Assembly: GCA_965248445.1 (NCBI GenBank)
Contig: CBDFJG010000004.1
Location: forward strand, 1,088,001-1,152,000
Source: Planctomycetota bacterium
GTDB lineage: Bacteria; Planctomycetota; JAJSAM01; JAJVHW01
Reading direction: 5' to 3'
Length of the DNA: 64,000 nucleotides
Part shown: one piece after another, positions 1-27,417 of the stretch
Layout: each line of letters starts with the position of its first letter
How positions within the stretch are numbered: the stretch's first letter is position 1
Notes under the pieces: generated by a model
Seen by the model: only the letters and a program-made list of their open reading frames with translations
The model's database searches: none
Told to the model about the DNA's origin: nothing
Position numbers and translations under genes: made by a program

Positions 1-47
1 CCCGATCACGCGCTGAGGCCGCGGATCGTCATACCCTGAACGGGTAC
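1..47 (+). mobile_element. Right end of a second IS66 copy (truncated by window start)
   Basis: 1-47 is the exact reverse complement of 6890-6936. It contains the last transposase codons and the terminal repeat CTGAACGGGTAC. Confidence 0.95.
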
Positions 48-1317
48 ATCCCGCCAGGGCTCGCGGCGTCGTCTCTCTTCTTGGGCAACGAGGAGCGGCT
101 AGCAGCCGACGAAGACGACGCCGTCGTCCCGGTCGCCCCCGCTTCGCCGCCGACCGCGCCCGCAACGCCTCCCGCCGATCCCCGGGTTGACGCGGGCGCG
201 AACTGGCGCGACGACCCGGACCGCGTCGAGTCCGGCGAGTTGGGCCCCGCGCACATCAAGATCATCTCAGGGCCGGCGGCCGCGCCCCTGAGGTTGCCCC
301 AGCGGGCACCCGAGATCCCTGGGTACGTCGACGAGCCGCACATGCGCATCGCGCCCGGCACGACGCAGTGCTGGGCAACGACGCATGAGGGCCTCCGGTG
401 CTGGCGGAGGACCAAGTTCCCGAGCCACCGGTGCTACGTGCACTTGGGGCCGTTCGATGACGTCGACGGACTCGCGGCCGCGCAGGCGCGAGTGGACGCC
501 GCCCTCCGAGACCGCGTGGATCACGACGAGGAGACGCACGAGCTGGTCATCGACTCCTCGGCGGAGGCGGTCCGGGTCACAGTTCCGTGCACCTTCGACG
601 TGCAGTGGGCCAATGGCCACGGCGGTACTCTCTCATTCGTCCGCTTCTCGATCGGCGCAGATGTCACCGCCATCGAGGAGATCGACTACTTCGCCTTCTC
701 GATGCGACGCGATGTTACGGGTGCGGATTGGACCGCTCGGCGCGCGCGTGTCCCGACCAAGGAGATCGCGGCGCTCGTGCACCTGGCCCGTGCGCAGGAC
801 CGCACGGTCGCCGAACTCCGATTGCGCCCCGGCGCGGACGAAAAATGGGGCGGGGGATCGGGCCTCCGCTTCGTCCTGACGCGCGTGGTCGCGGGCGGGC
901 GCCGCCTGTTGGAGCGCGAGTTCTCCGGCAGCCCAAGGTTTCCTGAGCGGCCGCAAACCGCCGGGCTTCAGTTCGTCGCGGGCGCGGTCCGCGAGCACCT
1001 CGACGCCATCACCTCTTGGACGGAAGTGCCCCCCGAGGACCTGCGCGCTACGCACTGGAACGACGCTTTCGTAGCGAACGCGGACATGATGCTCCGTAAC
1101 AAGTGGGTGATGCACCGCTCCGTCGAGGCGCTCGGCGTGTTCGGAACGCCAGCGGCGGTTCCGACGCTGCGCCGTCTCGACGCTGTCGGGTCTCGGTCCG
1201 CGGTCCCTCGCGCGGCTCCGCAACGCGCTCGCACGCCCTGAGTACTACCTCATGGGCGATCCACGGACCATCCCGTGGATTGGGCCGCCGACCGTGCCTC
1301 CCGAGGACGAGAAGTAG
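48..1317 (+). pseudogene. C-terminal part of an IS66-split lipoprotein, paralog of 10561..11571, with a frameshift near 1190-1210
   Basis: Shares long stretches with 10561..11571 (GLAAAQARVDA, ELVIDSSAEA, PCTFDVQW.NGHGG, LRATHW, RSVEALG.FGTP). The homologous tail RNALARPEYYLMGDP continues in another frame to TAG at 1315-1317. The N-terminus is at 8612-8422. Confidence 0.8.
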
Positions 1318-1409
1318 AACTCCGGCGCGGAGGACGCGGACGAGAAGTGAAGAACTTTCTTGGCTGCGGGACCGTCCAACTCGCTCACCAGCATGGAAGG
1401 ACCGTGTGC

Positions 1410-1742
1410 ATGCTCCTCGACAGATTCGTCGTCTTCTTCGTCACGTGGACGGTCCTCGTGCTGGCGAACGGTCTCTTCCTGTGGAAGGGATCGCCCGCGG
1501 CGAAGCGGGCGTGGTTCCCACGCATCGCGATCCTCGAGTGCGTCATCTTCGTTGCGTTCACGTACTGGGTCGCGCCGCATGCGCTGGTTCTCTGCGTGGT
1601 CGTTCCGATCGCGGCGGTCATGGCGTTCCTCAACGTCCGCACCATCAGGTTCTGCGCCAGTTGCGGCGCCGTCCATCAGAGTTTCGGACCGTTCAGGGCG
1701 CACGACGGCTGCTGTCGGAAGTGCGGAACGGATCTCTCGTAG
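1410..1742 (+). CDS. Small membrane protein with a C-terminal CxxC...CxxC zinc-ribbon-like motif
   Basis: Three hydrophobic segments, then FCASCG...CCRKCG. GGAAGG precedes the start, and the stop abuts the next ATG. Confidence 0.6.
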   Translation: MLLDRFVVFFVTWTVLVLANGLFLWKGSPAAKRAWFPRIAILECVIFVAFTYWVAPHALVLCVVVPIAAVMAFLNVRTIRFCASCGAVHQSFGPFRAHDGCCRKCGTDLS

Positions 1743-2879
1743 ATGAGAACCCGCATGCAGTCATGGCATCGCACAGCACTGGTCGCACTCGTTGCGTTCT
1801 GCGCCGGCGCACTGATCGCGACAGCGGTCGTTCCGGGAGTGGAGCGCGACGGTGCGCCTGCGCAACAACCGTCGCCGGACGTCCCCGTGGAGCAGGCCGC
1901 GCCGCCCCCGCGGGAGCGCGTCCGCGTCAACGATGTTGACGCAGCCCTCTCTGGGGACGAACTCGAGTTCCTGCGACGCGCCCTCGCGGCGGAGCGCGTG
2001 CGGCGTCGCGGGGCACGCATCCCTCAAGACCTTCCAGGCCTCGACGTCGTGCAGAGGTGGATCGATGGGGCCGACGTGACGGACCTCGTCTCCGATTTCG
2101 CGGCGATGCGCGCGCATGTCCGCACGGCGCCCGAGCCCGTCGCGTTCGTCGCGTCGACCGGAGGGCGCACCGACGTCGACCTGAGCGACTACGCCATCGG
2201 CGATTCGGGCGTCATAGAGTTCGGGCCCGGCACGTTCGTGCTTCAGACGGAGAACGACGCCTGGAACGAGACACGGGGCAACACCGAGTCGCTGGAGATC
2301 CGCGGCGCCGGCATGGACAAGACCACGCTGATCGCACCCATGCACGCGTTCCTCGTGGTGAACAAGGGAGGCTACCTGCGCAACGTCGTGATCCGCGACC
2401 TGACCATCGACGCTGACGGCGAAGCGATCATTCTCAGCACAGGTGGCGGGTTGGCCGTCGCGCTCGAACGCGTCCGCCTCCGCGGCTGGAAGCTGGCAGG
2501 CCACGCTGCGGCCATCGGCGTGACCGGCAGCGGATTCCTGGCGCTCAGGGGCTGCGAGATCATCGGCCCGGGCGACGGCTTTGCGCTGAGCCTCCGGGGG
2601 CGCACTCTGGCGACTCTCGACTGGTGCACCATCAAGGATGTCGAGCAGGTATTCGTGGGGTGGGAGAGCCCGCGTGCTCACGGCTTCGCGTACGCCCGTG
2701 ATTGTCGGTTCGAGAACGCGAAGCTCGCGGACTCGCGCGCCACGGGCGTTGAGATCCACGTCTCCGGCGGGTCGGTGCTCCTCGGCTCGGCCGGGGAGTC
2801 CGAGGAAGCTCGTTTGGAGCGGTGGGGAGCGAAGTACGCGAAGTCCGTCGAAGACCTCATCTTCGAGGACGTCGAGTAA
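1743..2879 (+). CDS. Secreted/anchored protein with a probable right-handed beta-helix (pectin-lyase-like) domain
   Basis: N-terminal hydrophobic segment. The pattern FGPGTF...LEIRGAGMDKTTL...NVVIRDLTID is typical of beta-helix starts. Confidence 0.6.
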   Translation: MRTRMQSWHRTALVALVAFCAGALIATAVVPGVERDGAPAQQPSPDVPVEQAAPPPRERVRVNDVDAALSGDELEFLRRALAAERVRRRGARIPQDLPGLDVVQRWIDGADVTDLVSDFAAMRAHVRTAPEPVAFVASTGGRTDVDLSDYAIGDSGVIEFGPGTFVLQTENDAWNETRGNTESLEIRGAGMDKTTLIAPMHAFLVVNKGGYLRNVVIRDLTIDADGEAIILSTGGGLAVALERVRLRGWKLAGHAAAIGVTGSGFLALRGCEIIGPGDGFALSLRGRTLATLDWCTIKDVEQVFVGWESPRAHGFAYARDCRFENAKLADSRATGVEIHVSGGSVLLGSAGESEEARLERWGAKYAKSVEDLIFEDVE

Positions 2880-3500
2880 GTGCGAAGTCGAATCGCGTGG
2901 TGGAGTCTGGCCGCCGTGCTCGCCGTGGCGTGCGGTGACGCGGACCCCGCCCCTGCGTTCGCCCCCGGCTACGTGACCGCGGAGCCGATCGAGCCGGGCT
3001 ACGACATCTACCGGATCGTGTACGACGTTCCGCAGCTGCGTCCCGACGTGGCGATGGTGATGTGGAACACGCAGGGCGATGGCGGCATGGTCTACTCGAT
3101 CCGAGCTGCAGAAGAAGACCTGCGGATCCGGTCCGTCGCGGAACTCAAGCCGTACGTGGCACCGATCGAGACCGCCGACGACGCCATCGCGTACGCCCGG
3201 CTCGTTCGCTACACCTTCGACATTCCGGAGGCCGAGGTCCCCGGGGAATCGTTCAACCGTTTCGCCGTCGGCATCAAGGAGAAGTTCGGCGCCGAACTCG
3301 AGACGACGGCTGAGCGGAATATCGGTTTGCTTCCGGCAGGGTGGGTCGTGCGCCGCGCCATCATGGAACACGTCGACCGAGAGTGGCGACTCGTGAGGCT
3401 CGAAGAGCACATTGACGCCGACGGCACCTACACGTTCAACCGGCTCCGCACTCTCGCCTCCGGCGACGAGGCGCGGCCTTTCGTAGTCTGGCGCCACTGA
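2880..3500 (+). CDS. Hypothetical lipoprotein
   Basis: Lipobox-like LAVAC. Translationally coupled to both neighbours and similar to 3500..4129. Confidence 0.7.
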   Translation: MRSRIAWWSLAAVLAVACGDADPAPAFAPGYVTAEPIEPGYDIYRIVYDVPQLRPDVAMVMWNTQGDGGMVYSIRAAEEDLRIRSVAELKPYVAPIETADDAIAYARLVRYTFDIPEAEVPGESFNRFAVGIKEKFGAELETTAERNIGLLPAGWVVRRAIMEHVDREWRLVRLEEHIDADGTYTFNRLRTLASGDEARPFVVWRH

Positions 3501-4129
3501 TGAGACGACTGGTCTTGTGCGCAACGGTGGGGACGATTCTGCTCGCGGCGGTCGCGGTGTGGTCCTTGCTGGACGTGTACCGGCCCCATCCCGAGCACAT
3601 TCTGACGGGCGACTGGATCACCGTCCGCGAGCACTCCGAAGCGGTGCTCCCGGACGGGGTGACGCTCGTCGTGGGGCACTTCGACAACGGCTACCCGGAC
3701 CTCCGCTCGCAGGTGCGCGACGTCGACGGCAACTTGCACCTGATGAAGAAGATCCAGGACTTTCAGGTGCACCTCGCTCCGCTGACGTCCGCCGAACTCG
3801 CGCTCGCCTACAGCGACTGCCTACGGCGCCTCCACCTGCGGAACGGCGACGTCCGCGGGCGGACCTCGTGGTCGGTGGGCGAATGGACGAGATCCCGTGA
3901 ATTCTACGAGCAGGCGCAGGCCATGGGCGTCGACGGCCACACCAGGGTCGTGCAAGAGCATGAGACGGGGTGGGTGCTCTTCCGGCCCACGCTTCACTAC
4001 ATCGACAGCAAGCTCTGCCTCGTGAGGCTTGTGGAGAGGATCGGGCGGGACGGCCAGTACCGGTTCAAGATCGAAGAGACGCTGGCCCCGGACGCCTCGG
4101 GGCTGCTCTACAGAAGGGAAGACTACTGA
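3500..4129 (+). CDS. Hypothetical membrane-anchored protein, paralog of 2880..3500
   Basis: TGATG overlap and an N-terminal TM. GWV..R....D....LVRL.E.I..DG.Y.F is shared with the upstream gene. Confidence 0.7.
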   Translation: MRRLVLCATVGTILLAAVAVWSLLDVYRPHPEHILTGDWITVREHSEAVLPDGVTLVVGHFDNGYPDLRSQVRDVDGNLHLMKKIQDFQVHLAPLTSAELALAYSDCLRRLHLRNGDVRGRTSWSVGEWTRSREFYEQAQAMGVDGHTRVVQEHETGWVLFRPTLHYIDSKLCLVRLVERIGRDGQYRFKIEETLAPDASGLLYRREDY

Positions 4130-5340
4130 TGACAGGAACGCGCACCCGTTGTCTCAGCGCGGCGCTCACGTTGGCGCTGCTCGCATCCCCGGCGTTCGCG
4201 CAGGATCCGGACCCGAACGCCATCGTGGCGTTGAACAACGTCGCGCACGCGCTCTCCGAGGTGTCCTCGCCCGTGACGCTGGCGCGCGTCGGCCGCGTAC
4301 ATGGGCGTTGCGCGGACACGCTGGAGGACGCGGCCAAGTACCACCTCAACGTGCTGCAGCGTGCCGCCGAGGGGCGCGGCGATGAGGCGCAACGCGCGTT
4401 CGCGGCGACGAGATGGTATCGGTTCGCCCACCGGCGCAAACTCGAGCACCGCGGGGCGATTGCGTTCTTGCTGTCGAGCCAGGACCCCATCAACTGGGCA
4501 ACCGCGAGCGCGGTGTTGGCGCGACAGCGTCCGTCCGCCATCGCCCGTCACCTACGGTCGGACGAGCGACCAGAGATCAGGCTGATCGGTGCGCGGCTTG
4601 CCAAGTTCACCTACCTCTTCGGCCCCGACAAGGACCGGGAGCACGCGATCAAGGCGGCCGTGCGCTCGCTTAGCGTCGAAGACGTAGGCGTGGCGGTCCG
4701 GTTCGCGCGAGACGCGTACGACTTCCGAGAGCTGCGCGTTGTCGACGCGCTGGCCGCCCTGCTTCGGGAGACCCGGGTGGTCGAAAGAGACGGGCGGCAC
4801 GGGCGCGTCTGTGACTTGGTGGGCCCGCTGCTGCATGGCCAGCTGATGAGCGATCCCGCGCTGGACGACGTGCGCGACGAATTCCCAGAGCACTACGACC
4901 AACACCTGCTTCTGCGGTGGCTCAAGGAGAACAGGGATCGCCTGGACTTCGACCGGCCGGGCGACGGTCGCGTCATCGTTCTCAACGAGGTGGTCCGTCT
5001 GGAGGAAGACGAGCCGAGGCGACTCGAGCTGCCGGGCGATCTCGGTTCATTGACGTTCAACGTCTCGAACGTCAGGCGGGGGGCCTTCGCGACGCGTGGC
5101 GCGCTCATCGCGTTCGACCTGTCCTGCAAGGGGGAGGGGGAGGTGAGCGTAGACGGGTCCAATAGCGACGGCCCCATGTTCGGGCTCTACGAAGTTCATG
5201 GCATGGGCATCAGTGCGGGCTCTAGGAAAGTCGACATGCGGATGTTCCTGAAGGCCACGACCGAGGAGGGGCGCTACGACATGCACTTCTTGGTCGGATT
5301 GACTCGGGGGCTCCATCCTCGCGGCGGACATCCAAGGTGA
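4129..5340 (+). CDS. Hypothetical secreted protein
   Basis: ATG overlaps the upstream stop. Signal peptide ends in ASPAFA-Q. Confidence 0.65.
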   Translation: MTGTRTRCLSAALTLALLASPAFAQDPDPNAIVALNNVAHALSEVSSPVTLARVGRVHGRCADTLEDAAKYHLNVLQRAAEGRGDEAQRAFAATRWYRFAHRRKLEHRGAIAFLLSSQDPINWATASAVLARQRPSAIARHLRSDERPEIRLIGARLAKFTYLFGPDKDREHAIKAAVRSLSVEDVGVAVRFARDAYDFRELRVVDALAALLRETRVVERDGRHGRVCDLVGPLLHGQLMSDPALDDVRDEFPEHYDQHLLLRWLKENRDRLDFDRPGDGRVIVLNEVVRLEEDEPRRLELPGDLGSLTFNVSNVRRGAFATRGALIAFDLSCKGEGEVSVDGSNSDGPMFGLYEVHGMGISAGSRKVDMRMFLKATTEEGRYDMHFLVGLTRGLHPRGGHPR

Positions 5341-6233
5341 CCCCGCCCCCCGCTCGCCCGTCACGCGTCGCGTCGCCCGTCGTCGCGCTCCTGCTGGCGG
5401 CGCTCGCGCTCGGTGGCTGCTACTGGTGCGCAGGGGACGACGACGCGGCGGCGCCCGACGCTTGGTGGATGCCTACAACTGGAACTACGCTAGTTGCGAC
5501 GCAGGAAGTCAAGCGAGACGGCGTAGCCTCGACGAGTCGCGCCGCGACCGCGTGGTCGTTTGAATCGGCGGGGGAGCGCGGTTGTCCCACGCGCGTGGTC
5601 GTCGCGCCCGTAGGCATGGCCGACGGACATCTGGCGAGCCTTCGTATCGACGATCTCGGGACGCTGCAGAGCGTCGAGTTGGGAGATCTGGCTGACGCTC
5701 TCACGGCGGAGTACGCCCAGTCCGCCGACCAGCTCTCTCGCGATCTGGCTCTGTCGCCGGAAGGGGCCGCGAAGGCGAAGCTAAGGATCGCGATGCTGTG
5801 GCTGGCCACAGGCGCGGGGTGGGTGCGACAGCTCTCGGAGGACGAGGATGTTGGCACTGGCTCGCTGGTCGTGCCGGTTGTCGGCGGCGTCGCCCGCGTG
5901 CAGTGCACGATACAACGCGGTGGGGAACCGAAGGCGGGATCGACTGGCTTCGTCGCGTCCTACTCGGTGACTGGGCACAACGCTCGAGAACTCCGGCCCG
6001 AGTTGCTCCGTCGAATTCGCGCGACAGACGACATAGGCGAGAGGCTCTGGGCGCACACCACCGTCGATGTACGCGGCACCATTGAGTGCCACATCAGCAA
6101 CGACACGCGCCGGCCCGTGTCCGCGGTCTGGGAGGAGACGACTGAACTCGGGCTGGGCGGGGAGACCACGTCGAGTTCGACAGAAGTTCAGTCGATAGCG
6201 TTCGACTTCCGCGAGAAAAGGGAGTCGCGGTGA
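5337..6233 (+). CDS. Hypothetical lipoprotein/secreted protein
   Basis: GTGA overlap with the upstream gene. Hydrophobic leader with LGGC. Confidence 0.55.
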   Translation: MTPPPARPSRVASPVVALLLAALALGGCYWCAGDDDAAAPDAWWMPTTGTTLVATQEVKRDGVASTSRAATAWSFESAGERGCPTRVVVAPVGMADGHLASLRIDDLGTLQSVELGDLADALTAEYAQSADQLSRDLALSPEGAAKAKLRIAMLWLATGAGWVRQLSEDEDVGTGSLVVPVVGGVARVQCTIQRGGEPKAGSTGFVASYSVTGHNARELRPELLRRIRATDDIGERLWAHTTVDVRGTIECHISNDTRRPVSAVWEETTELGLGGETTSSSTEVQSIAFDFREKRESR

Positions 6234-6246
6234 AACTGCTGACTAG

Positions 6247-6889
6247 CCGCATCTGTTCACGAGACGTCGCGATGACGGTGCTTTCGGAGTCCACAGGGTC
6301 AGATCTTGGCCAGGCGAGGGCGGATGCTGTCGTCGTTGCCACAAGGGCAACGCGAGTGAGCGGCCGAAACGGCGCGGATTCTGCGGTGTGGGCAGACCGT
6401 AGGCCGGGCGGTGGTGTGGCGGACGGCGCGGCGGGACGTCAGGTCGGCTTCGGGGATGCCAGCAGTCGTTGCGCGCAGCGCTCGAAGACGTGCTGCCAGG
6501 GCCACGACGAGGACATCGAGACCCAGATCCGGCGCGTCGTGATCCGCACGAGCGCGCCGATCTTGAGCAGCCGCAGGCGGATCGTGCCGGCTTGCGCACG
6601 CGCCATCTCGGTGCCGGCGAGACCGATGCGTCGCAGCGCACAGGTCAGGACGTAGGCCATGGCCGACATGGCCATCCGCACGGCGTTGCCCTGCATCGTG
6701 TGCACCGACAGACGGGTGCCGAAGAGCTCGAGCTGCTGCTCCTTGATGCGATTCTCCGCCTCGCCCCGGGCGCAGTAGAGCTGCTCGTAGAGACGCTTGC
6801 TGCTCCAGCTACGAGGCGGCAGATTGGTCACCACGAAGCGGGGATTGCGCTTGCCGCCCGGCAGGTGCTCGGCCTTGGCGACCACGCGA
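6247..6889 (-). mobile_element. 3' fragment of an IS1380-family element (transposase C-terminus 6439-6889), cut by IS66
   Basis: RVVAKAEHL..NPRFVVTNL...LYCARGEAENRIKEQQL.LF..R.S..AN.VR...IRLRLLKIGA is characteristic of IS1380 DDE transposases. A putative end GTGAACAGATGCGG sits next to CTAG at 6243-6246. Confidence 0.85.
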
Positions 6890-8421: not shown

Positions 8422-8612
8422 GGCGGGATGGCGATGAGCCCGCAGGGACCGTCACGATGCGTTCGCGGGGGCGGAGGCGGCGGGTAGGTGACGTGCACGC
8501 GGACGGGCAGCTCGGGCGCCACCACGACAGCCGCCGGCGGCTGCTTGCAGCACGCGGAGAGCGCCAGGACGGCGCAGAGGAGGAGAGCGGGCCGGAACCG
8601 TGTGAGCTTCAT
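8422..8612 (-). pseudogene. N-terminal part of an IS66-interrupted lipoprotein (continues at 48..1317)
   Basis: MKLTRFRPALLLCAVLALSAC lipoprotein signal. It ends at ATCCCGCC, which also flanks the other IS copy at 48-55, and the join is in frame (GLIA-IPP-GLAASS). Confidence 0.85.
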
Positions 8613-19838: not shown

Positions 19839-21245
19839 CTACCCATCTGCTTGGAAGGGGTCTGCGGGGAACTCACCGCCGGTCGGAGCTGCATCCGCGC
19901 CGGTGGCCGGCACGGCGGCGTCTCGCAACGCGAGTGTCTCGCGGTACTCCTGGGCCTCGGCGAGCAGCGTGAGTTCGAACGGCACGCCGCGCTTCTCAAG
20001 GGCGACGCCGATCTCATCCGTCGTGACGCGGAAGTACTCCTTCCGGCGGTTCACGAGGTTCACGCGGCGGTCGTCGAATTCGCGATGGAGCGCGGCCTCC
20101 AGGCCTGGGGCGTCCTCGGAGAACATCATGCCGTGGACGTCGAAGCCGAACGGCACCGACGCGTCCCCCAGTTCCTTCACGCGGTCCATCGGCTTGAGGC
20201 GCCTGGTCATCCCGATCTTGAGGATCCCGTCGCCGAACGACCCGACGTTGGACACGACGTAGACGAAGCCGGCGCGCGTCATCTGCGCGCGTGAGATCGC
20301 TCGCACCGTGTCCGAGTGCGCCTCGTCGAGCTGGGCCTGCAGTTTCTCGATCCGCTCGCTGAGGGCGTCGCGCTCCGCGCCATCGGCCGAGGCAATCTCT
20401 GCGCGTGCGGCCTCAAGCGCCCTTGCGTGCCGTGCCTCCTCGTCCTCCGCTTGCTTTCGCGCCTTCTCGATCTCCCGCTGCGCGCGTTCCTCGTCGCGCA
20501 TCTGCGCCCGGATGGCTCGCTGCTCCTCCGCCTCGGCCTGCTTCTTCTCGGCCATCTCGTGCCGTAGGCGGAGTTCCTCCAGCCGGAGCTTGTGGTAGCT
20601 CCACGTCAGCTCGATCTGCATGACGCCGCCGAGCTTGTTGATCGCGGCGAACGCCTTCTCTATCCGTGCTTCCATTCTCGTGACGTTGTTCCACTTCACC
20701 TTCGCAACGCAGGCATCGACCTCACCGTTGAACGCGCGCAGCAGGAGCTTTGCGTACTGCTTCTGCATCCGCTCGCCGTCGCGTCGGCTGCCACCGACTG
20801 TCCACTCCGCCAAGTAGTGCACCGCGCTACCGTCTCGCACCGCGCCGCGCTGCCGTTCGGAGAGACGCTTCAGGGCAGCCTTGTACTTCTCGGAGGTGTC
20901 GAAGTCGTAGTGCGGGCGATAGACCCCGAACGAGATGTCCTCCAGGTTGCCTTCCAGCAGATCGACATCGGCCTTGAGCCGGTCATGGAGCGCCTTCGCG
21001 TGCGTGTACGCTGCCTGCAGACTGGCGCGGCGTTCGGCAGCGGCGCTCTCGGCGCCTTCGATGGCGGCGCGAACGCCCAAGAGGTCCGCGCGCGCTTTCC
21101 GTGCGTCCTCCTCGGGATCGAGCACGCCCGCGAATCGCGCTTCGAGCGCACGGTGCTTCAACTCGAGGGCGCGCCTCCGGATCCAGAGGAACACGACGCC
21201 GGCGCTTGCACCGACCGCAACGAGGAAGACCAGGAACTCGAACAA
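19839..21245 (-). CDS. TM-DUF4041-GIY-YIG (T5orf172-like) nuclease, PD-lambda-1/SNIPE-like anti-phage protein
   Basis: N-terminal TM, coiled coil, KLLLRAFNGE.D (DUF4041), then AGFVYVVSNVGSFG..KIGMTRRL..RV.ELGDASVPF.FDVH...LE..LH..F...VN..N.RKE.F. Confidence 0.88.
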   Translation of the reverse strand: MFEFLVFLVAVGASAGVVFLWIRRRALELKHRALEARFAGVLDPEEDARKARADLLGVRAAIEGAESAAAERRASLQAAYTHAKALHDRLKADVDLLEGNLEDISFGVYRPHYDFDTSEKYKAALKRLSERQRGAVRDGSAVHYLAEWTVGGSRRDGERMQKQYAKLLLRAFNGEVDACVAKVKWNNVTRMEARIEKAFAAINKLGGVMQIELTWSYHKLRLEELRLRHEMAEKKQAEAEEQRAIRAQMRDEERAQREIEKARKQAEDEEARHARALEAARAEIASADGAERDALSERIEKLQAQLDEAHSDTVRAISRAQMTRAGFVYVVSNVGSFGDGILKIGMTRRLKPMDRVKELGDASVPFGFDVHGMMFSEDAPGLEAALHREFDDRRVNLVNRRKEYFRVTTDEIGVALEKRGVPFELTLLAEAQEYRETLALRDAAVPATGADAAPTGGEFPADPFQADG

Positions 21246-21287: not shown

Positions 21288-21695
21288 TTAGAGGACTTCC
21301 TGCAGCGTGTCGAGCCACTGCTCGCGCAACCACACCGGCGTGCCGGCGGCCTCCACGCCGCCAGGCTTCCCCGTCGCGATCTTGAACAGCTCGATCGCCT
21401 GGGCATACAGGGCGGCGGCGATCCCTTCGTTCCCACGCTTCGACTCGCACTCCGCGGCCTTCATCCAGATGAACAGCGCGACGTTGGCATCGCTGAGCGC
21501 CTGGAACGTCTCGTCCACCCGCGACTTCCAGCTGAGGTCGAGGCTGCCGGACTGCTCGTTGATGTCAGCGGCGAGAGCCGTGACGAACTCCCTCTCCGTG
21601 GACGTGGAGATCCGGTTCTCGGGCACGGTCACGCTGCAGCAGCCCGTGACCACCAAGAGCGCTACGAGCCCGAACAACAGTGCGATCTTCGACAT
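21288..21695 (-). CDS. Hypothetical lipoprotein
   Basis: AGAAGGA RBS-like sequence and MSKIALLFGLVALLVVTGC lipobox. Confidence 0.65.
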   Translation of the reverse strand: MSKIALLFGLVALLVVTGCCSVTVPENRISTSTEREFVTALAADINEQSGSLDLSWKSRVDETFQALSDANVALFIWMKAAECESKRGNEGIAAALYAQAIELFKIATGKPGGVEAAGTPVWLREQWLDTLQEVL

Positions 21696-21736
21696 CGTTT
21701 CCTTCTCCTCTATCGAGTGAAATGGGGGTTCGTGTG

Positions 21737-22396
21737 CTACTGCAGCAGCTTCGTCTGCTGCCCCGCGTGCCCCGCGTGCCGCGCGCCCAGCAGCAACCCG
21801 CGCCTGGAGTTCCGCAACCACGTCGCGGCAGACGGAACGGCCAGGTCGTGCGCGCGATCCGACGCCGTGTTGACGATCTGATCGACCAGTGCGCCGACCA
21901 GCATGCCCAGCACGTTGTCCTGCTGGTCCGACGAGTTCTGCTCGGCGACGTGCGATCCCTCCTAGAGCAGCGTGCCGGTCTGAGCGTCCACCAGGCGGCC
22001 GCTGACCGACACGATCGTCTGCGAGTTCAGGACCTGATAGCTCGTTCCCCAGTCGTGGACGTGGAGGTAGAGCACCGCGTCGGCCCCGATGATCTCGTGC
22101 AGCTTCGAGAGTTCAGCCGTACGCATCTCGGCGGGCGTCGGCAGGCCGTTCTCCTTGAGCATGCTGTCGACCACGGCGACGGGGAAGACGTAGTAACCGT
22201 GCTCCGCAATCGGCGCGGTCGCGACGCTCAGGTAGTTGTACGACGCGAGCGGTTCGACGGACTCGTTCGTGGGCGGCAGCACCAGGATCGAGCTGGGCAT
22301 GTGGGCCAGGTACTGGCTGTAGTCGTGCGGTTTCTGAGGCGCATTGCATGCGGCGGTCACCAGGAGCGCGAGCGCGGTCGCGACCACGGTGCGCAT
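21737..22396 (-). pseudogene. DUF799 (GNA1162-like) lipoprotein with an in-frame TAG at 21962-21964
   Basis: P.SILVLPP.NES, GYYVFPVAVV, ADAVLY....WG..Y motifs. The frame continues past TAG (in place of the usual Trp in TG.LLW.G) to a stop at 21737. Confidence 0.8.
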
Positions 22397-22740
22397 CACC
22401 GGCTCATCCTCGCGAGCAGCCCGTCCACGAACACCGCGGACTCGGGGAACGCCGCCTTCTCGGCTGACAGCATTCGCGCCCCCGCGTCGCCGTCGCCGGC
22501 CCTGAAGTACAGATAGCCCAGGTGGGCGCGGACGCCTGGCGGGACCGCGTCGGCTTCCGTCTCCGCGACCTGCTCCTCCAGCTCGAGGATGTGGTCGCCG
22601 AGTTCGAAGTCCTCGGCGTCGACCCACATCTCGTAGAGCGAGTCCTGGTAGTCGCCCCACGCGTACATCGTCTTCCGTGCGCACCCGGTCATGCAGACCG
22701 ACGCCAGAAGAGCCGTCGCAAGCCACATGCGCGCGCGCAC
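22396..22740 (-). CDS. DUF4810 lipoprotein
   Basis: MTGC lipobox, YAWGDYQ..LY, VPPG..AHLGYLY, EKA.FPES..F.D.L. Confidence 0.85.
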   Translation of the reverse strand: MRARMWLATALLASVCMTGCARKTMYAWGDYQDSLYEMWVDAEDFELGDHILELEEQVAETEADAVPPGVRAHLGYLYFRAGDGDAGARMLSAEKAAFPESAVFVDGLLARMSR

Positions 22741-23492
22741 TAGTTGCCCCACGCGCCGCTCTCGACCGACGCGACCAGCTTGTTCACCGCGTCGGTGATC
22801 GACAGGTTGAGCACCTTGCCGTTCAGCGTCGCGTCGTACCCGGCGGTGCTCGCGAACCCCACGACCTCGCGCGTGCTGAGCGCGTACTCGCCCGCGCCTT
22901 GCACGGAGTAGACGACGCGCGACGTGCGCGTCTCCACGATGTTGAGCGACACCTTGGAGTAGGCCATCTGCTTGTGGCCGCGCCCGAGGATCCCGTACAG
23001 CTGACGATCCCCAGTGTTGCGGCGACCGAACTCCGTGACCTCGCCGGTGATCACGTACGCCGCGCCGGTGAGCGACTGGGGCGTCCCCAGGACGTCCGAC
23101 TCCCACGCGATCTCGTCGAGGTTGTCGCGATCGAGGAGCACGAACCGGCCCGACTGCGACAGGTGCGTCTTGAGGATCGTCTTCGCCTGAGTGCCGAGCC
23201 GGTCCTCGCCCGACGAGAACATGCCCTGCATGTACGGAGAGCGGTTCTGGAAGTTGCTGATCGCCAGACTCGGTCGGTGCCCGGAGTACGCCGTGCCGTA
23301 GCTCGTGACGGACTGCGTTGCGACGACCTGGTGGCTCTCGGACGCGCACCCGCTCGACACGCCAGCGACCAGCGCGGCCAGGGCGAGGCACGCCGCCGCG
23401 CGAGGACGGGTTCTCGGTCGAAACCTAGGCGGGCTTTCAGGGTCCGCGTCGTCGAAACTCGCTACGAAACGGGTGGCCAAACTCGTAAGCAT
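22740..23492 (-). CDS. CsgG/HfaB family lipoprotein
   Basis: F.NRS.Y..G.FS.G.DRLG.QAK.IL.THL.QSGRF.LLDR.N, ITG.VTEFGR, S.QGAGEY. The start codon is uncertain. Confidence 0.88.
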   Translation of the reverse strand: MLTSLATRFVASFDDADPESPPRFRPRTRPRAAACLALAALVAGVSSGCASESHQVVATQSVTSYGTAYSGHRPSLAISNFQNRSPYMQGMFSSGEDRLGTQAKTILKTHLSQSGRFVLLDRDNLDEIAWESDVLGTPQSLTGAAYVITGEVTEFGRRNTGDRQLYGILGRGHKQMAYSKVSLNIVETRTSRVVYSVQGAGEYALSTREVVGFASTAGYDATLNGKVLNLSITDAVNKLVASVESGAWGN

Positions 23493-23505
23493 ACGTTCGT
23501 GAAAT
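23486..23505. promoter_or_regulatory. Putative operator, copy 1 (TAAGCATACGTTCGTGAAAT)
   Basis: 18/20 match to 24230-24249. AT-rich and located at the csgG start. Confidence 0.5.
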
Positions 23506-23656
23506 AGGTCATGATCGGGTGCCCCGTCAAACCTAAAACTCGGAAGACGGCTGCCCGTCCTCGGGCTCGGACGAACTCGTGCCTCGCGCCAGGGCCGGGC
23601 GAACGCCGGTGATCGCACCGGTCTCCGGGTCGGTAGCGCGGGGCACGACACGCCAC

Positions 23657-23914
23657 CTACGCGGCGGTGGAGAGGTCCGTTGCGGCGGCCCGGAGGGCGT
23701 ACTGGAGGTCGAAGAACTCGTCCGCGGTGGGGTGGCGCTTCCCCGACTCGATGGCCTCGAGCCACGCGATCGAACGGAGGGCTTCCCCAGCGACAGCCTC
23801 TAGGCTGAGGCCCATCTCGCGCCGGAGCGCGCGCGCCTTCCACGCTGAGAAGCGGCGGCGGCGGGAACGGCGCCGAGGGAGGCGCGGGAGAGGGCGACGG
23901 CGGCGAGCGCTCAC
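23657..23914 (-). CDS. XRE-family helix-turn-helix protein
   Basis: RALRREMGLSLEAVA....SIAWLEAIESGKRHPT. Confidence 0.75.
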   Translation of the reverse strand: MSARRRRPLPRLPRRRSRRRRFSAWKARALRREMGLSLEAVAGEALRSIAWLEAIESGKRHPTADEFFDLQYALRAAATDLSTAA

Positions 23915-23924
23915 GAGCCGGAGG

Positions 23925-24179
23925 CTACTCAGTGAAGTCCAGGACCTCGCACTCCAGGAGGAAGGCCAGGGCCAAGAGCTGATCGGCGTTCGGCTGCGTC
24001 TTGCCCTTCCTCCAGTTGTAGATCGTCTCGTTCGTGACCTCGCAGGGCTCCGCCAGGTGCCTGGTCTGGAGGCGGTCGCCGCGATCCTTGGCGCGGCTCT
24101 TCGCCTCCTTCCAGAGCACGGCGAACTTCTCGCTCGACCACCGCCGGCGGCGTGCGCCGCGAGACCTTTTTTCCCCCAC
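23925..24179 (-). CDS. XRE/Cro-like helix-turn-helix regulator
   Basis: LAE.CEVTNETIYNWRKGKTQP.ADQLLALA..L. Confidence 0.8.
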   Translation of the reverse strand: MGEKRSRGARRRRWSSEKFAVLWKEAKSRAKDRGDRLQTRHLAEPCEVTNETIYNWRKGKTQPNADQLLALAFLLECEVLDFTE

Positions 24180-24229
24180 CTAATCGCGCCCTCCGGCCCC
24201 GCCCCCACGCTCCAACATGGGCACACAGT

Positions 24230-24267
24230 TAAGCATACATTCGTTAAATCCCTTTTGGTGAACGAAT
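24230..24267. promoter_or_regulatory. Divergent promoter/operator region, operator copy 2 plus the inverted pair ATTCGTT/AACGAAT
   Basis: AT-rich gap between divergent HTH genes, containing a repeat of 23486-23505. Confidence 0.5.
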
Positions 24268-24343
24268 TTGGATATTGACCGAGCCGCGGCGGTGTCACAG
24301 GCTCGTTGAAGAGCGATACCAATCGAGCCGGAGGAAGCCCGCA

Positions 24344-24697
24344 ATGCAGGTGATCAGCCACAGGGAACGTCTCAAAGAACGTCTGGCTGCGCTCGTCCGC
24401 GAGGACGCGGATCGGGCGGCAGAGCGACTCGAGCTAGTCGGGCTCCTCCGCGGCTCAGGAGGCCCGACGACAACGCCGACCCAACGACGGTTGCTGGCTG
24501 TGCTGCGGGAGGAAGGGGCGCCGATGCGAGCGTGCGAGATTGCGGACCGTCTCTCGCTCGTGGGGGGCCGGGCACGCCACGGCATCGCCACGGACTGCTG
24601 CATCCTCCTAGCGCGGGGACAGCTCGCACGACTCAGGCGCGGCGTGTACGGGCTGCCCCCCGAGGCGGCGGGCGCGGAGGAGGGGAGCGGGAGGTGA
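24344..24697 (+). CDS. Winged-HTH-like DNA-binding protein
   Basis: GGAGG RBS. TPTQRRLLAVLREEG.PMRA.EIADRL...LARLRRGVYGL. Confidence 0.65.
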   Translation: MQVISHRERLKERLAALVREDADRAAERLELVGLLRGSGGPTTTPTQRRLLAVLREEGAPMRACEIADRLSLVGGRARHGIATDCCILLARGQLARLRRGVYGLPPEAAGAEEGSGR

Positions 24698-25149
24698 GCA
24701 CCACCGTCCACTGCCTGTCCCGACGCGAGATCGAGTCGATCGATTGGCGCTCGACCGAGCCGGGCATCGCGATCTGCCTGGCGTACCCCAACGGCCGGAT
24801 CCACCGCGTCACGCCGGGGGATGGGCTCGTCGCCGTGCACCACACCAGGTTCTCTGACTGCGACGGCGAAGGCCGCTGGACGTTCCCGGAGAACAAGGCG
24901 GGCAACACGCCGATCCCGATGCTCCGCGGGCAGGCGCTCGACATCCTGGACTTCGCCCGCGCGCACGGCGACGTCGACGACGTGTACGTCGCGTGCATGG
25001 GCGGGGTGTCGCGGTCGCGCGGCGTCGCCGCTGGTCTTTGCGCCGTGCTCGGTTGGGACGACGCCGCCGTCTACGCGGAGGGCCAGCCGAACGCGCACTG
25101 CAAGTCGATGATCGTGGCGGCATCCCGACTTTGGGACGGAAGACCGTGA
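24694..25149 (+). CDS. Protein-tyrosine/dual-specificity phosphatase-like protein
   Basis: CX5R P-loop VYVACMGGVSRSRGVA, an upstream F.D.D acid loop and a downstream PN motif. GTGA coupling. Confidence 0.75.
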   Translation: MSTTVHCLSRREIESIDWRSTEPGIAICLAYPNGRIHRVTPGDGLVAVHHTRFSDCDGEGRWTFPENKAGNTPIPMLRGQALDILDFARAHGDVDDVYVACMGGVSRSRGVAAGLCAVLGWDDAAVYAEGQPNAHCKSMIVAASRLWDGRP

Positions 25150-25661
25150 TCGCCAGCGACCGCGAGCTGCTGTGGGCGGACGTGCCGAACGCCGTCAAAC
25201 TCGATGCGCAGCGACAGATCGACGACGCCGTGCAACGGGAGCGAGAGGCGATCCTGCGCCTCGACAGCGTGCGCGGGAGAGCGTGGTTCGAGATCCGCGG
25301 CCGCGGCGCCGGGGCGGCTGAGATCGCCGACGAGGAGGCGGAGCTGCTCCTTGCCGCCGTCGGCGGTGACGCTTCGAAGCTGCCCGCCATCCTGTGTCGC
25401 GGCGCCGCCCTGTTGCGCGAGGCGGAAGCGTCCGTAGCTCTCAGCCGTGACCCGGGCTGTCAGACGCACGCTGTCGCGCCCCACTTCGCCCCTCCTGACT
25501 CGCTTCCATCGTGGGCTGTCGCGCGCATCACGCGAGCGAGCGGGCTGTACGAGGGCCAGTGCGAGCACGGCATCGGGCATCCCATCGGCACGTTCCCCGA
25601 AGGGTACGGCGTCCACGGTTGCGACGGGTGCTGCGCACCGGGCTCGGGGCTACTGCCGTGA
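25146..25661 (+). CDS. Phage-like hypothetical protein with a Cys/His metal-binding tail
   Basis: CEHGIGHP...HGCDGCC. GTGA coupling. Confidence 0.6.
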   Translation: MIASDRELLWADVPNAVKLDAQRQIDDAVQREREAILRLDSVRGRAWFEIRGRGAGAAEIADEEAELLLAAVGGDASKLPAILCRGAALLREAEASVALSRDPGCQTHAVAPHFAPPDSLPSWAVARITRASGLYEGQCEHGIGHPIGTFPEGYGVHGCDGCCAPGSGLLP

Positions 25662-26014
25662 ACCTCCTCGACTTCCTGAGCGTCGTGATCGAGGACGGCA
25701 TCGCCGCGGCGCGCAAGAGCTACGCGAACGACCCCGAGAAGCGCGCCGGTGCCGTTGCCGGCTTCGAGGCGTGCCGTGGCAAGTCGCCGACCGAGTTGCT
25801 CGCGTTGCTCGAAGGCGCTCGCTCCGACACGCGACTCGCCTACGTGCTGGACGCCCGCGACTACTGGCGCGCACGGTGCTACGAGGCCGAGATCGAGTGG
25901 GTCTGCAACTGCGTCAGCGCCGTCCTCGAGAACGAGGGGCACGCACCGATCATCAACCCGACGTACCGGGGCGTGATGAAGGCGAACGCCGTCCTGCAGG
26001 GAGTTGCCGGGTGA
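25658..26014 (+). CDS. Phage-like hypothetical protein
   Basis: GTGA coupling at both ends and coherent codon usage. Confidence 0.6.
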   Translation: MNLLDFLSVVIEDGIAAARKSYANDPEKRAGAVAGFEACRGKSPTELLALLEGARSDTRLAYVLDARDYWRARCYEAEIEWVCNCVSAVLENEGHAPIINPTYRGVMKANAVLQGVAG

Positions 26015-26421
26015 GCCTCCCGGTCCTCCTGACCGTGCCAGAGGTTGCCGAGTACTTGGGGGTCTCCCCGAGGACTGTGCAGCGCATGTGCAGCGAGGGG
26101 CGCATCCCCAGCGTGTCGTTCCGCGGCGGCTACCGCGTCCCGAGTGACGAGCTGGAGGCGTTCATCCGTCGGGCTGCGCGCGGGAGCGTTCGAGAGCCGC
26201 AGGAGCCTCGGCCAGCTCCCCCTCCCGAAGCGCGCGGTTATAGACAGTCTGCGACATCCGAGGCGATCGATGGCCCAGCAGCCGAGCGGTGGCTTGCGGA
26301 CGAAAGGCGTCTCCTTCGAGAGAAGATACGAACATTACGCGGAGGTCCTGAATGCGCAGCGTCGGGTGGCCGACGCGCTTCCGAAAGCGGCGCCAATACA
26401 GCCGGAGACCGTTCACGGTGA
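26011..26421 (+). CDS. Excisionase-like (HTH_17) DNA-binding protein
   Basis: LLTVPEVAEYLGVSPRTVQRMCSEGRIPSV...YRVP..EL..FI. Confidence 0.85.
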   Translation: MSLPVLLTVPEVAEYLGVSPRTVQRMCSEGRIPSVSFRGGYRVPSDELEAFIRRAARGSVREPQEPRPAPPPEARGYRQSATSEAIDGPAAERWLADERRLLREKIRTLRGGPECAASGGRRASESGANTAGDRSR

Positions 26422-27232
26422 CCCCGGAGAACACGCGATGAGGACCATGCAGCGGAGCCGGGCCGCGGTGCTGCCAGAGGTGTGCGAGAATCTTGCGCAG
26501 CCGCGGGCTCATCTGGCACTCGGGCCGATACCCGCGCTTCTGCGCCGGTGGTCTCGCGGTCGAGAAGTCGTCGGCCACGAACTTCCACTCCAGCCCGAGT
26601 GCCTGCCCGCGCCGCACGCCCGTGTCCACGTAGAACGTGATGATGGGCCGGTACTTGTCGGACGCCGCGTCGAGGATGGCGTCCAGCTCCGTGCCAGGGA
26701 GATTCCGGACCTCGCGTGGCCTCGTGGACTCGAAGGTGATGACCCGGCGCCGTCCGCCCCCGCGGAAGGGGTTCCGGACGATGTGCCCGACCTCCTGCGC
26801 CTCATCGAACACCGGGGCGAGCACGTTGAACTCCCGCTTCAGCGTCGCGGGCGACAGCTGTCTCGCGCGGAGCCCGGCGAAGTACACCCGGATCTGCGCC
26901 GTGGTGATCTGGTCGAGCGGCGTGTGGCCGAAGAAGGCGTCCGCGCTGTTGAACGTGAAGACCGCTCGGTCGAACGTCGCGGGCATCACCTGCGCCGCGT
27001 AGAGCGCCAGGTAGTGGGTGTGGAGGAACGTCGTGAAGGCGGGGACCGCGACCTGCTGATGACGCGCGAACTCGAGGTCCGCGAGGAAGTCGGCCTGCCA
27101 GCGGCGGGCGTCGCGCTTCTTCTCCCCGAGGGCCTTCTTGCGGCGCCGCTTGCCAGCCGAGTCCGTGAAATCGAACCACCAGCCGGGCCGCTCAGCCCGC
27201 CGGAAAAGAACCGTTCTATCGCCTGTAGCCAT
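26162..27232 (-). CDS. Tyrosine recombinase/integrase
   Basis: Arm domain WWFDFTDSAGKRRRK, TGVRRGQALGL.W, LRIQDLR, LLGH.S..M...Y. Adjacent to the tRNA 3' end. Confidence 0.92.
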   Translation of the reverse strand: MATGDRTVLFRRAERPGWWFDFTDSAGKRRRKKALGEKKRDARRWQADFLADLEFARHQQVAVPAFTTFLHTHYLALYAAQVMPATFDRAVFTFNSADAFFGHTPLDQITTAQIRVYFAGLRARQLSPATLKREFNVLAPVFDEAQEVGHIVRNPFRGGGRRRVITFESTRPREVRNLPGTELDAILDAASDKYRPIITFYVDTGVRRGQALGLEWKFVADDFSTARPPAQKRGYRPECQMSPRLRKILAHLWQHRGPAPLHGPHRVFSGVTVNGLRLYWRRFRKRVGHPTLRIQDLRVMFVSSLEGDAFRPQATARLLGHRSPRMSQTVYNRALREGELAEAPAALERSRAQPDG

Positions 27233-27341
27233 GAACAGACCGTACCAGAAAGTGCTGCCCGCGTTGCTGCCCCGATCCCGATGCGCCTCTGGAGCGCTTG
27301 GCCGGTGATCGCTCAAACCCTTGCAAATACTGGGCTTAGCG

Positions 27342-27417
27342 TGGTGGGCAGAGGCAGACTTGAACTGCCGACCCCTGCATTTTCAGTGCAGTGCTCTACC
27401 AACTGAGCTACCTGCCC
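27342..27417 (-). tRNA. tRNA-Phe (GAA)
   Basis: GGGCAGG acceptor stem, D-arm AGCTCAGTTGGTAGAGC, anticodon arm CTGCA-CTGAAAA-TGCAG, TTCAAG T-loop, encoded CCA. 76 nt. Confidence 0.97.

Follow-up and report, generated by a model that had tools for sequence, protein, structure and literature searches.

We analysed a window of 64,000 nucleotides from a Planctomycetota bacterium (on contig C4 of its assembly) and conclude that positions 1–27417 very probably hold half of a tailed temperate prophage, which integrated into a tRNA-Phe gene, was parted from its other att site and is likely to be non-excising. This half carries an intact SNIPE nuclease that is predicted to be active, and a Rhs–lipoprotein block that was probably joined to it by deletion from the remnant of a second prophage. 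We regard the prophage as split and gutted because a duplicate of the tRNA-Phe end, an arm-type repeat, and replication and tail remnants lie on another contig (C3). As a broken prophage half with a known SNIPE stands beside broken genes, we see ordinary genome decay here and not a new defence-and-attack system. This ordinary cryptic prophage contributes an intact SNIPE of a lineage about which little is known and serves as a worked example: a co-directional run of envelope genes can be a mosaic made by deletion, and a missing att site can sit on another contig.

Table 1 Features of the prophage half and its surroundings (window coordinates)
Feature	Position	Strand	Evidence or remarks
End of second, inverted IS66 copy (C4:1086516-1088047)	1..47	+
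Inverted block, seven envelope-protein ORFs	48..6233	+	formerly co-directional with cargo
IS1380 stub	6247..6889	-	3' 643 of 1669 nt
IS66	6890..8421	-	32 full copies in genome
Lipoprotein, 5' part, split by IS66	8422..8612	-	remainder at 56-1241 (+)
Exported protein	8689..10536	-	61% paralogue behind intact Rhs on C2
Lipoprotein	10561..11571	-	lipobox; weak HEAT; no immunity family match
Rhs fused to DUF4236 stump	11552..16100	-	first ~195 residues missing; tip frameshift near 12.08 kb
DUF4236 gene	16100..16946	-	frameshift near 16.22 kb; cut off near 16.10 kb; lesion also in short-read contigs
Small lipoprotein	17024..17440	-	lipobox; no family match
Exported chimera with prenyltransferase-type (squalene-cyclase-type) barrel	17437..19734	-
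SNIPE / PD-lambda-1, TM-DUF4041-GIY-YIG nuclease, intact	19839..21245	-	PADLOC 1.5e-157
Lipoprotein of no assigned family	21288..21695	-	lipobox; no PADLOC, PHROG or NCBIfam match
GNA1162/DUF799 lipoprotein, pseudogene	21737..22399	-	in-frame stop at 21962-21964
DUF4810 lipoprotein	22396..22728	-	PF16068 2e-21
CsgG-like lipoprotein, NMB1126 type	22740..23492	-	PF03783 8e-21
20-nt motif copy 2	23486..23505		contains likely csgG start codon
XRE regulator 2	23657..23923	-	HTH_31 2e-6
XRE regulator 1	23925..24179	-
20-nt motif copy 1, divergent immunity region	24230..24249
Early operon, four small ORFs	24344..26014	+	wHTH-like, phosphatase-like (by eye), two of no assigned family; mostly no family match
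Excisionase	26011..26421	+	HTH_17 1e-17; phrog_66 8e-14
Tyrosine integrase	26162..27232	-	PF00589; phrog_1 1e-39
Tandem arm-type repeat TGCTGCCC-N4-TGCTGCCC	27253..27272	+	second copy at C3:15555
att core, 51 bp	27340..27390		100% duplicate at C3:15423-15473
tRNA-Phe(GAA), integration site	27342..27417	-	tRNA call

Integration site and att pair

The tRNA-Phe gene lies downstream of ribF in 7/7 same-family genomes. The tRNA call and profile matches bear out an earlier, sequence-only reading of this DNA, in which an integrase, an excisionase and two XRE genes adjoin tRNA-Phe. The att core is a copy of the tRNA 3' end, and its duplicate, with common arm sites, marks the far boundary, as in tRNA-integrated prophages. 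That reading had proposed looking for the second att site upstream of the window; none was found upstream on C4, and the tRNA-Phe 3' duplicate sits on C3. The arm-type repeat occurs at exactly two sites in the whole genome (5.4 Mb), one beside each att, and its copies are likely to be the arm sites of the integrase. The integrase retains R, R, H and Y, with Gln in place of the His of HxxR; viral and metagenome searches returned no relatives of it.

The radical-SAM gene that flanks the att site on C3 had no orthologue in 30 relatives (best match 36%). The comparison with empty-site relatives that had been proposed yielded none with an empty site beside this gene, and we therefore infer the original boundaries of the element.

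Prophage remnants at the far att site

Beyond the C3 att site lie replication and morphogenesis genes of a tailed phage: DnaB (7e-79), TerS (9e-4), an HNH gene, a tail chaperone (6e-9) and a tape measure (6e-25). A sister prophage at C4:457-493 kb, 49–71% identical to this half, keeps the missing blocks. The TerS on C3 is without the first 94 residues of the sister's protein and is cut by a gene on the opposite strand, the tail chaperone has lost its C-terminus together with 360 bp downstream, and the tape measure is full length. For the large terminase, portal, capsid and tail tube, neither half holds a credible match to the genes of the sister prophage. With these genes absent and the att sites not on one continuous element, this is not a functional (inducible) prophage. 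The earlier statement that no capsid, terminase or replication genes are in view is correct for 1–27417, where none was found; replication, packaging and tail remnants do exist at the C3 att site. No relatives of the tail chaperone were found, the tape measure had one weak match in 400 phylum genomes, and no close relative of the tRNA-Phe phage was found.

PICI-type satellites redirect packaging by TerS, and the element might likewise redirect a helper phage, the sister prophage, with the TerS, tail chaperone and tape measure that it encodes. C3 keeps just these three as structural genes, with DnaB, the integrase and defence cargo in addition, and PLEs encode TAC and TMP, redirecting tails (PMC12987554). 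We consider this reading highly improbable: the tape measure alone is whole among the would-be redirecting genes, TerS and the chaperone being truncated; the two att sites are on separate contigs, with no compact, recurring element between them; and searches for close relatives returned no related element. Thus, of the satellite-like or remnant element proposed from the sequence, the integrated remnant at tRNA-Phe stands and the satellite does not, the element being one half of a tailed prophage.

Insertions, inversion and broken genes

Window coordinate 1 lies inside IS66 and is no element boundary. The inverted block spans 48–6889, with IS66 at its flank. Where IS66 split the lipoprotein gene, the 8-bp target duplication is divided and the frame is open across the old site. 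Of the 32 full IS66 copies in the genome, 18 are bordered by flanks that do not match, and in 14 cases the sequence on the left is the right flank of another copy.

Could the split of the att sites be an assembly artefact at IS repeats, the halves being contiguous in the cell and still a decayed prophage? The genome holds dozens of identical IS copies of 1.5–1.7 kb, at which mis-joins would also give flank swaps. We think this unlikely, given that the four contigs of 0.65–2.0 Mb run through many such repeats (a probable sign of long reads), that partial IS copies and swap chains look like real events, and that the deletions within the halves do not depend on the att split.

Mis-joins at repeats could likewise produce att sites that are split and IS flanks that are swapped; the read comparison covers the half in the window.

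The run of about 15 kb of co-directional, mostly coupled genes that had been described is right for direction before the inversion; the array at 81–6233 now lies on the opposite strand, behind IS66 and the IS1380 stub. At the 13 tabulated gene junctions, two overlap by 4 nt and the rest have gaps of 1–366 nt. Profile searches confirmed the calls of CsgG, DUF4810, DUF799, DUF4041, the barrel, DUF4236 and Rhs, and the cargo is indeed mostly envelope-directed: a hydrophobic N-terminal stretch is present in 14 of 18 cargo genes versus 1,035 of 3,440 genome ORFs (30%; binomial 4e-5, the genes not being independent). Lesions disrupt four of the cargo genes, namely DUF799, DUF4236, Rhs and the lipoprotein at 8612, and those in the first three are also seen in short-read contigs. 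The ‘operon’ is a mosaic.

Assembly error behind the DUF799 stop, the frameshifts and the DUF4236–Rhs junction was considered and rejected: there were 0 differences there, with identity at the DUF799 site, in short-read contigs of runs X1–X3, which represent one sample, possibly the source sample, and end at IS elements.

The DUF4236–Rhs junction

The Rhs gene keeps the YD-repeat core and the Rhs-associated core, and has neither an export determinant nor an in-frame C-terminal toxin domain. Intact copies on C2 and C3 share 77% identity with it, and its missing N-terminal part corresponds to the signal peptide and TSP3-like repeats of the paralogues. On this comparison, the DUF4236–Rhs join was probably made by deletion. 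A natural DUF4236–Rhs fusion family was rejected, as 0 of 28 longer homologues have an RHS domain; DUF4236 had no match in phage records. By its position, the lipoprotein at 10561..11571 is a possible Rhs immunity protein.

On C2, an intact Rhs and the paralogue of the 8689 protein are bounded by prophage late genes on one side and a tRNA-Pro att-like site on the other; the late-gene labels of this tRNA-Pro family were set by eye, save an HNH. An int–xis–primase stub of the same family, 90–100% identical and matching in orientation, lies 3–5 kb left of the window. These arrangements tip the balance slightly towards the Rhs–lipoprotein array having once been part of the tRNA-Pro prophage family of this genome. 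Alternatively, all of the cargo, with the Rhs array, could have been the accessory region of the tRNA-Phe phage itself, the DUF4236–Rhs junction being an internal deletion with no second prophage involved. With the inversion undone, all cargo genes run in one direction over about 21 kb, and no att site or integrase lies between DUF4236 and Rhs. This single origin is possible, though we doubt it, in view of the recurrence of the Rhs–8689 pair on C2 in the tRNA-Pro family, the stub of that family just left of the window, and the lineage-wide, multicopy nature of the Rhs family.

SNIPE and its neighbours

Profile searches found DUF4041 and a T5orf172/GIY-YIG domain in the SNIPE protein, and by hydropathy only, hydrophobic residues 4–22 form its N-terminal membrane anchor. 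Its Glu383 aligns with the catalytic Glu414 of a 500-aa PD-lambda-1, assuming that the numbering of the latter is that used in PMC13190303. The enzyme is predicted, and likely, still to cut incoming phage DNA and protect the host. The proposal of a phage-entry nuclease on an integrated tRNA-Phe remnant holds, through the PADLOC call and the Glu alignment; the DefenseFinder/PADLOC check that accompanied it, made with PADLOC on 28 proteins, returned SNIPE and nothing else. SNIPE is common prophage cargo, and relatives were present in 41 phage records; DUF4041 was found in 25 of 400 other phylum genomes, and SNIPE as a single-sequence query returned no relatives. In the neighbouring chimera, the barrel shares 83% identity with a host gene at 38853–40421, 20 kb away, and no relatives of the N-terminal part were found. 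Atlas searches with two orphan proteins gave scores under 0.9.

The CsgG–DUF4810–DUF799 trio and the 20-nt motif

The trio is a known, widespread cluster. Its three genes are in tandem, in the order of related loci, and one is no longer intact; no solved relative was found by sequence. PHROG matches raised the trio as phage cargo, a reading that we rejected: the sole IMG/VR locus has the trio among chromosomal genes, and only 2 INPHARED records match.

The two copies of the 20-nt motif agree at 18 of 20 positions, which was equalled in 2 of 300 shuffles. The motif occurs nowhere but upstream of the XRE gene and at the start of csgG; no other cargo gene is preceded by it. An in-frame TAG stands between the ATG of copy 1 (24236) and the ORF of XRE regulator 1. 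No sigma-70 promoters were found (0), and terminators were at chance level. The motif ties the csgG start to the immunity region, the one point that supports the shared switch of the sequence-only reading.

Taken together, the motif and the envelope enrichment amount to some order in the cargo, which counts against a pure decay mosaic.

An integrase, DUF4236 or Rhs occurs in 0 of 84 csgG loci and the trio in 0 of 160 SNIPE loci; one of the 84 has SNIPE 2 kb off, on the opposite strand. Nor was the combination found in 400 phylum genomes, where the genome-level co-occurrence test is weak, with under one overlap expected. The gene neighbourhoods therefore gave no recurrence in the samples searched, a result that had been named beforehand as the mark of chance accretion.

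These counts bear on whether SNIPE, the CsgG module and a Rhs toxin form a selected envelope defence/offence operon under an XRE switch. The envelope signals, the co-direction, the intact SNIPE, the motif common to the XRE and csgG upstream regions, and the one csgG locus with SNIPE nearby would fit such an operon. We judge it very unlikely, as four of its genes (DUF799, DUF4236, Rhs and a lipoprotein gene) carry lesions, the Rhs is without an export leader, the other cargo genes lack the motif and the combination does not recur. The proposal of a satellite-like element that unites a nuclease, a CsgG module and a polymorphic toxin behind a single switch thus falls: the toxin is a leaderless fragment and the trio has lost one gene.

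A narrower version is a long shot. Before its decay, the phage might have placed csgG–DUF4810–GNA1162 behind a duplicate of the signal in its immunity region and transcribed the trio together with SNIPE, pairing an outer-envelope exclusion module with an inner-membrane entry nuclease. If true, this would be the first tie of the ‘curli-like cluster’ to phage defence, and a block to phage entry would give this conserved cluster a function; the trio behind an element-specific motif is the one open lead.

Proposed history

We envisage that a tyrosine integrase inserted the phage into tRNA-Phe, and that the lysogen likely expressed accessory genes downstream of the XRE genes, csgG being preceded by a copy of the immunity-region motif. 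The phage would then have lost its terminase and head genes and most of its tail genes, and a deletion running from DUF4236 into an Rhs gene would have fused the accessory region to the Rhs–lipoprotein array. Later, IS1380 and IS66 may have inserted, a segment may have been inverted and the far half may have moved elsewhere in the chromosome; finally, DUF799, DUF4236 and the tip of Rhs would have decayed by point changes. The order of steps is our arrangement of what was observed directly, namely the att pair, the common arm repeat, the C3 gene remnants, the lesions and the IS66 split.

Comparison with known systems

A ‘curli-like’ csgG cluster has been described in Acinetobacter baumannii and as Neisseria NMB1126–GNA1162 (10.1101/2021.05.19.444899). 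As described there, it likewise has a csgG-like gene and two lipoproteins in identical order, and the likeness extends to CsgG identities of about 56–66% across phyla. Unlike that cluster, the trio here lies in a prophage accessory region, next to an integrase that 0 of 84 other loci have, and its third gene carries a stop.

Sec-exported Rhs polymorphic toxins (PMC3482391) share with our Rhs the YD-repeat core, the Rhs-associated core, a variable tip and downstream candidate immunity genes, and the intact paralogues in this genome carry signal peptides as those toxins do (PMC3482391). Unlike them, the copy here is leaderless, fused to a DUF4236 stump and frameshifted at the tip.

The element resembles PLE satellites, as portrayed in PMC12987554, in having an integrase, a replication gene, defence cargo, a chaperone and a tape measure, with no capsid or large terminase. 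Unlike PLE and PICI satellites, it has TerS and chaperone fragments and widely separated att sites, and the searches revealed no family of elements of this kind.

SNIPE, or PD-lambda-1, is a known anti-phage nuclease (PMC13190303, PMC9519451). The protein here is 42% identical to a 500-aa PD-lambda-1 and agrees with the published accounts in its N-terminal TM, DUF4041 and GIY-YIG domain with the position of the catalytic Glu (PMC13190303, PMC9519451); it differs in its shorter N-terminal linker, the protein being 468 aa long. The known prophage SNIPEs of Javan180 and CDMH1 lie between an XRE gene and the integrase, and SNIPE here is also downstream of XRE genes, with the difference that four lipoprotein genes intervene.

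The element as a whole parallels the cryptic (‘grounded’) prophages described at tRNA genes (PMC6379469). With these it shares a tyrosine integrase beside a tRNA, a duplicate of the tRNA 3' end, missing head and tail blocks, IS insertions, inversions and kept accessory genes (PMC6379469); unlike them, it has its att sites on different contigs and its accessory region fused to a Rhs array.

Gene content of the tRNA-Phe element

The window spans C4:1088001-1152000 of its source genome (5.4 Mb, GC content of 68–69%, four contigs, C1–C4). This genome is rich in insertion sequences: one IS66 is present in 32 full copies, and one IS1380 has 78 matches. All of the genes named in the sequence-only reading of the element were recovered: tRNA-Phe, integrase, xis, two XRE genes, CsgG, DUF4810, GNA1162/DUF799, DUF4041 with T5orf172, a squalene-cyclase-type barrel, DUF4236 and RHS. 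Envelope signals are enriched in the cargo: by a simple hydropathy test, 14 of 18 cargo genes have an N-terminal hydrophobic stretch versus 1035 of 3440 genome ORFs (binomial 4e-5, a figure overstated because neighbouring genes are not independent). Describing the genes as mostly coupled was too generous, with 4-nt overlaps at 2 of 13 tabulated junctions but gaps of 1–366 nt at the others. In the supposedly chimeric protein, the barrel shares 83% identity with a host gene at a distance of 20 kb, and 11 matches to it occur genome-wide; searches for relatives of the protein's N-terminal part found none. Two neighbouring host genes share the prenyltransferase-type barrel and differ in their N termini.

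Features of the window and the second att site
Feature	Position	Strand	Basis
Block, putatively inverted	48-6889		
IS66 copy	6890-8421		
Lipoprotein gene	10561-11571		
Out-of-frame Rhs tip	11552-12088		
SNIPE gene	19839-21245	-	PADLOC
20-nt motif, csgG copy	23486		
20-nt motif, XRE1 copy	24230		
18-codon ORF	24180-24236		
att core	27340-27390		
tRNA-Phe	27342-27417	-	
Host barrel gene pair	36997-40421		
Duplicate of att core	C3:15423-15473		

A tailed phage, probably gutted and split

The second att site had been expected upstream on C4; it is not there, and a 51-bp, 100% identical duplicate of the att core sits on C3 instead. A tandem repeat, TGCTGCCC-N4-TGCTGCCC, lies 70–80 bp inside both att cores and is absent elsewhere in the genome; the pattern was derived by comparing both arms, so the genome count is a measure of specificity, and the repeat was not discovered independently of the arms. 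Behind the C3 att are genes for DnaB (7e-79), a weak TerS match (9e-4), HNH, a tail chaperone (6e-9) and a tape measure (6e-25), with counterparts 49–71% identical in a sister prophage (C4:457-493 kb) that additionally has a DUF4055 portal-type gene, a weak capsid match, a tail tube and a large terminase labelled by eye. Compared with the sister prophage, the C3 TerS lacks its first 94 residues and the tail chaperone lacks its end and the 360 bp behind it; the remaining structural genes have no credible match in either half of the element. Because of these remnants, truncations and missing structural genes, and the att on another contig, the element appears to be a former tailed phage that is now gutted and split.

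The sister prophage (loci L143 and L144) carries terminase, portal, capsid, tail and holin-like genes; no integrase was seen adjoining it. On C3, a complete copy of tRNA-Met, matching a host tRNA at 96% identity, and a HEPN-like gene pair (C3:24720-26181; L001:11721-13182) occupy the place of the missing portal-to-tail-tube block.

Flanks are unmatched for 18 of the 32 IS66 copies, 14 of which pair with a different copy. Thirteen tRNAs have a 19-nt 3′ duplicate, and for 8 of them such a duplicate lies on a different contig (other tRNA genes were left among the matches). Splits of this kind look common in this genome; assembly mis-joins at repeats would give a similar picture of split att sites and swapped flanks.

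tRNA-Phe lies downstream of ribF in all seven same-family genomes, none of which has the element's cargo at this site, although in two of them the contig stops less than 1 kb on; in another, an unrelated barrel gene lies at a distance of 10 kb. In genome G005, an integrase that is 35% identical directly follows tRNA-Phe. After that integrase and xis are tandem ORFs of ~120 aa starting MAGE..P...PR.TT (L136:9006-16664); the same type occurs in genome G016 (L117:6920-8205), 7–9 kb from a SNIPE gene, and the two scanned had no Pfam match.

Lesions and mosaic structure of the cargo

The cargo, as its junctions and lesions read, is apparently a mosaic. The DUF799 gene has an in-frame stop. Alignment to DUF4236 homologues (11 of 28 used) continues beyond a frameshift near 16.22 kb and ends at about 16.11 kb, the point at which the window sequence becomes Rhs. 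Compared with its paralogues on C2 and C3 (77% identity), this Rhs is missing the N-terminal ~195 residues, a stretch that holds TSP3-like repeats and a signal peptide in the paralogues; a second frameshift, near 12.08 kb, disrupts the Rhs tip. The out-of-frame tip has an HExxH motif and a weak DUF922 match (0.004), which suggests a metallopeptidase domain. Short-read contigs (runs X1–X3) show zero differences at the DUF799, DUF4236, Rhs-junction and Rhs-tip lesions; this check covered four runs from one sample, possibly the source sample.

The 8-bp target duplication of the IS66 copy is shared out between it and an inverted copy ending at 47, and the reading frame is open across the old site, yielding a lipoprotein of ~460 aa that is 60% identical to the tabulated lipoprotein gene. 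The adjoining block was therefore at one time co-directional with the cargo and was later turned round, either in the cell or during assembly.

Members of the Rhs family were found in 6 of 7 genomes of the same family and 9 of 16 of the class, commonly as several copies, and intact copies have leaders. On C2, an intact Rhs is followed by a 61% identical paralogue of the window gene at 8689; prophage late genes (identified by eye) flank this Rhs locus on one side, and an att-like site of tRNA-Pro (74.5% over 161 nt) flanks it on the other. An int-xis-primase stub of the same prophage family (90–100% identity) lies 3–5 kb left of the window, in the orientation expected after deletion of the prophage middle. 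On balance we lean slightly towards derivation of the Rhs block from this tRNA-Pro prophage family; alternatively, the tRNA-Phe phage itself would have carried the array as cargo.

Five identical large-terminase-like genes and tRNA-Pro att sites mark this family (C2:866-898 kb, C4:1-25 kb and the ends of C4, C1 and C3), and contig breaks fall inside its copies. Two IS66 copies (C2:851326-852857 and C4:1077199-1078730) have reciprocally swapped flanks, and at each of the two old sites the reading frame runs through unbroken; DNA lying 9 kb to the left of the window thus formerly adjoined the C2 Rhs locus.

Recurrence of the combination

CsgG, DUF4810 and DUF799, read from the sequence as one operon with SNIPE (a transmembrane DUF4041–GIY-YIG nuclease), DUF4236 and Rhs, do not recur with the full set of these partners in the best-match samples of 84 csgG loci and 160 SNIPE loci or in 400 phylum genomes. 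Among the csgG loci (the best 80 of 503 genome matches, 1 viral and 3 relatives; 49 are at least 20 kb), DUF4810 is found with csgG in 84 and DUF799 in 81; SNIPE occurs in one, on the opposite strand, and none contains an integrase, DUF4236 or Rhs. For A. baumannii, the trio has been described as a widespread cluster of three genes that has no known role but affects matrix and biofilm (10.1101/2021.05.19.444899). Trio genes, DUF4236 and Rhs were likewise found at none of the SNIPE loci (the best 80 of 506 metagenomic matches, only 18 of at least 10 kb, and the best 80 of 277 viral matches, many near-redundant), of which 3 metagenomic and 48 viral loci have an integrase. The 400 other phylum genomes include 25 with DUF4041, 15 with DUF4810 (9 over the cut-off) and none with both, the expected overlap being <1, which makes this a weak test. 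Two other csgG loci have tRNA-Phe nearby (L069:9517-9592 and L071:58-133), with no integrase in the DNA examined.

Literature searches on DUF4041 with GIY-YIG in phage, the trio, DUF4236 in phage, and planctomycete prophages with Rhs, covering few subscription journals, returned no paper describing the combination, a lack of precedent best explained by its one-off nature.

A motif shared by XRE1 and csgG

One observation supports the proposal of a single regulatory switch: a 20-nt motif is common to the XRE side and csgG but precedes no other cargo gene. Its two copies, identical at 18 of 20 positions (a level also reached by 2 of 300 shuffled versions of the 1.1-kb region), have no counterpart elsewhere in the genome at ≤4 mismatches. 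The motif ATG shares the reading frame of csgG and, if one stop is passed over, that of XRE1. In the XRE1 copy, it opens an 18-codon ORF whose TAG directly precedes the XRE1 GTG in the same frame, either a leader ORF or a nonsense mutation. A promoter search found no sigma-70 promoter. The motif is likely to be a promoter, operator or leaderless start common to the repressor-side transcript and csgG.

SNIPE and relation to known systems

A PADLOC search of 28 proteins recovered SNIPE (468 aa; PD-Lambda-1, 1.5e-157) but no other defence match. The protein shares 42% identity with the PD-lambda-1 (500 aa) of phage PhiR26_1, which adjoins ren, and its Glu383 aligns with Glu414; SNIPE is reported to require E414 and DUF4041, to cleave DNA during injection while leaving resident prophages alone, and to have a homologue in 33% of well-sequenced clades (PMC13190303). 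Relatives were found in 41 phage records, lying between an XRE-type regulator and an integrase in the two firmicute phages opened. Prophages are described as main reservoirs of such defence systems (PMC9519451).

In the history we propose, a temperate phage that carried accessory genes behind the XRE genes would have inserted into tRNA-Phe and lost most lytic genes; a deletion would have fused the accessory region to the Rhs array, and IS-mediated rearrangement would have cut the element apart. SNIPE and some lipoproteins are probably still able to work.

A PLE-like satellite (PMC12987554) is very unlikely given the truncated TerS and tail chaperone. Rhs toxins exported through Sec form an established class (PMC3482391). 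The element fits among cryptic or 'grounded' prophages, a described class (PMC6379469) that it resembles as a tRNA-integrated phage with lytic genes lost and IS rearrangement.
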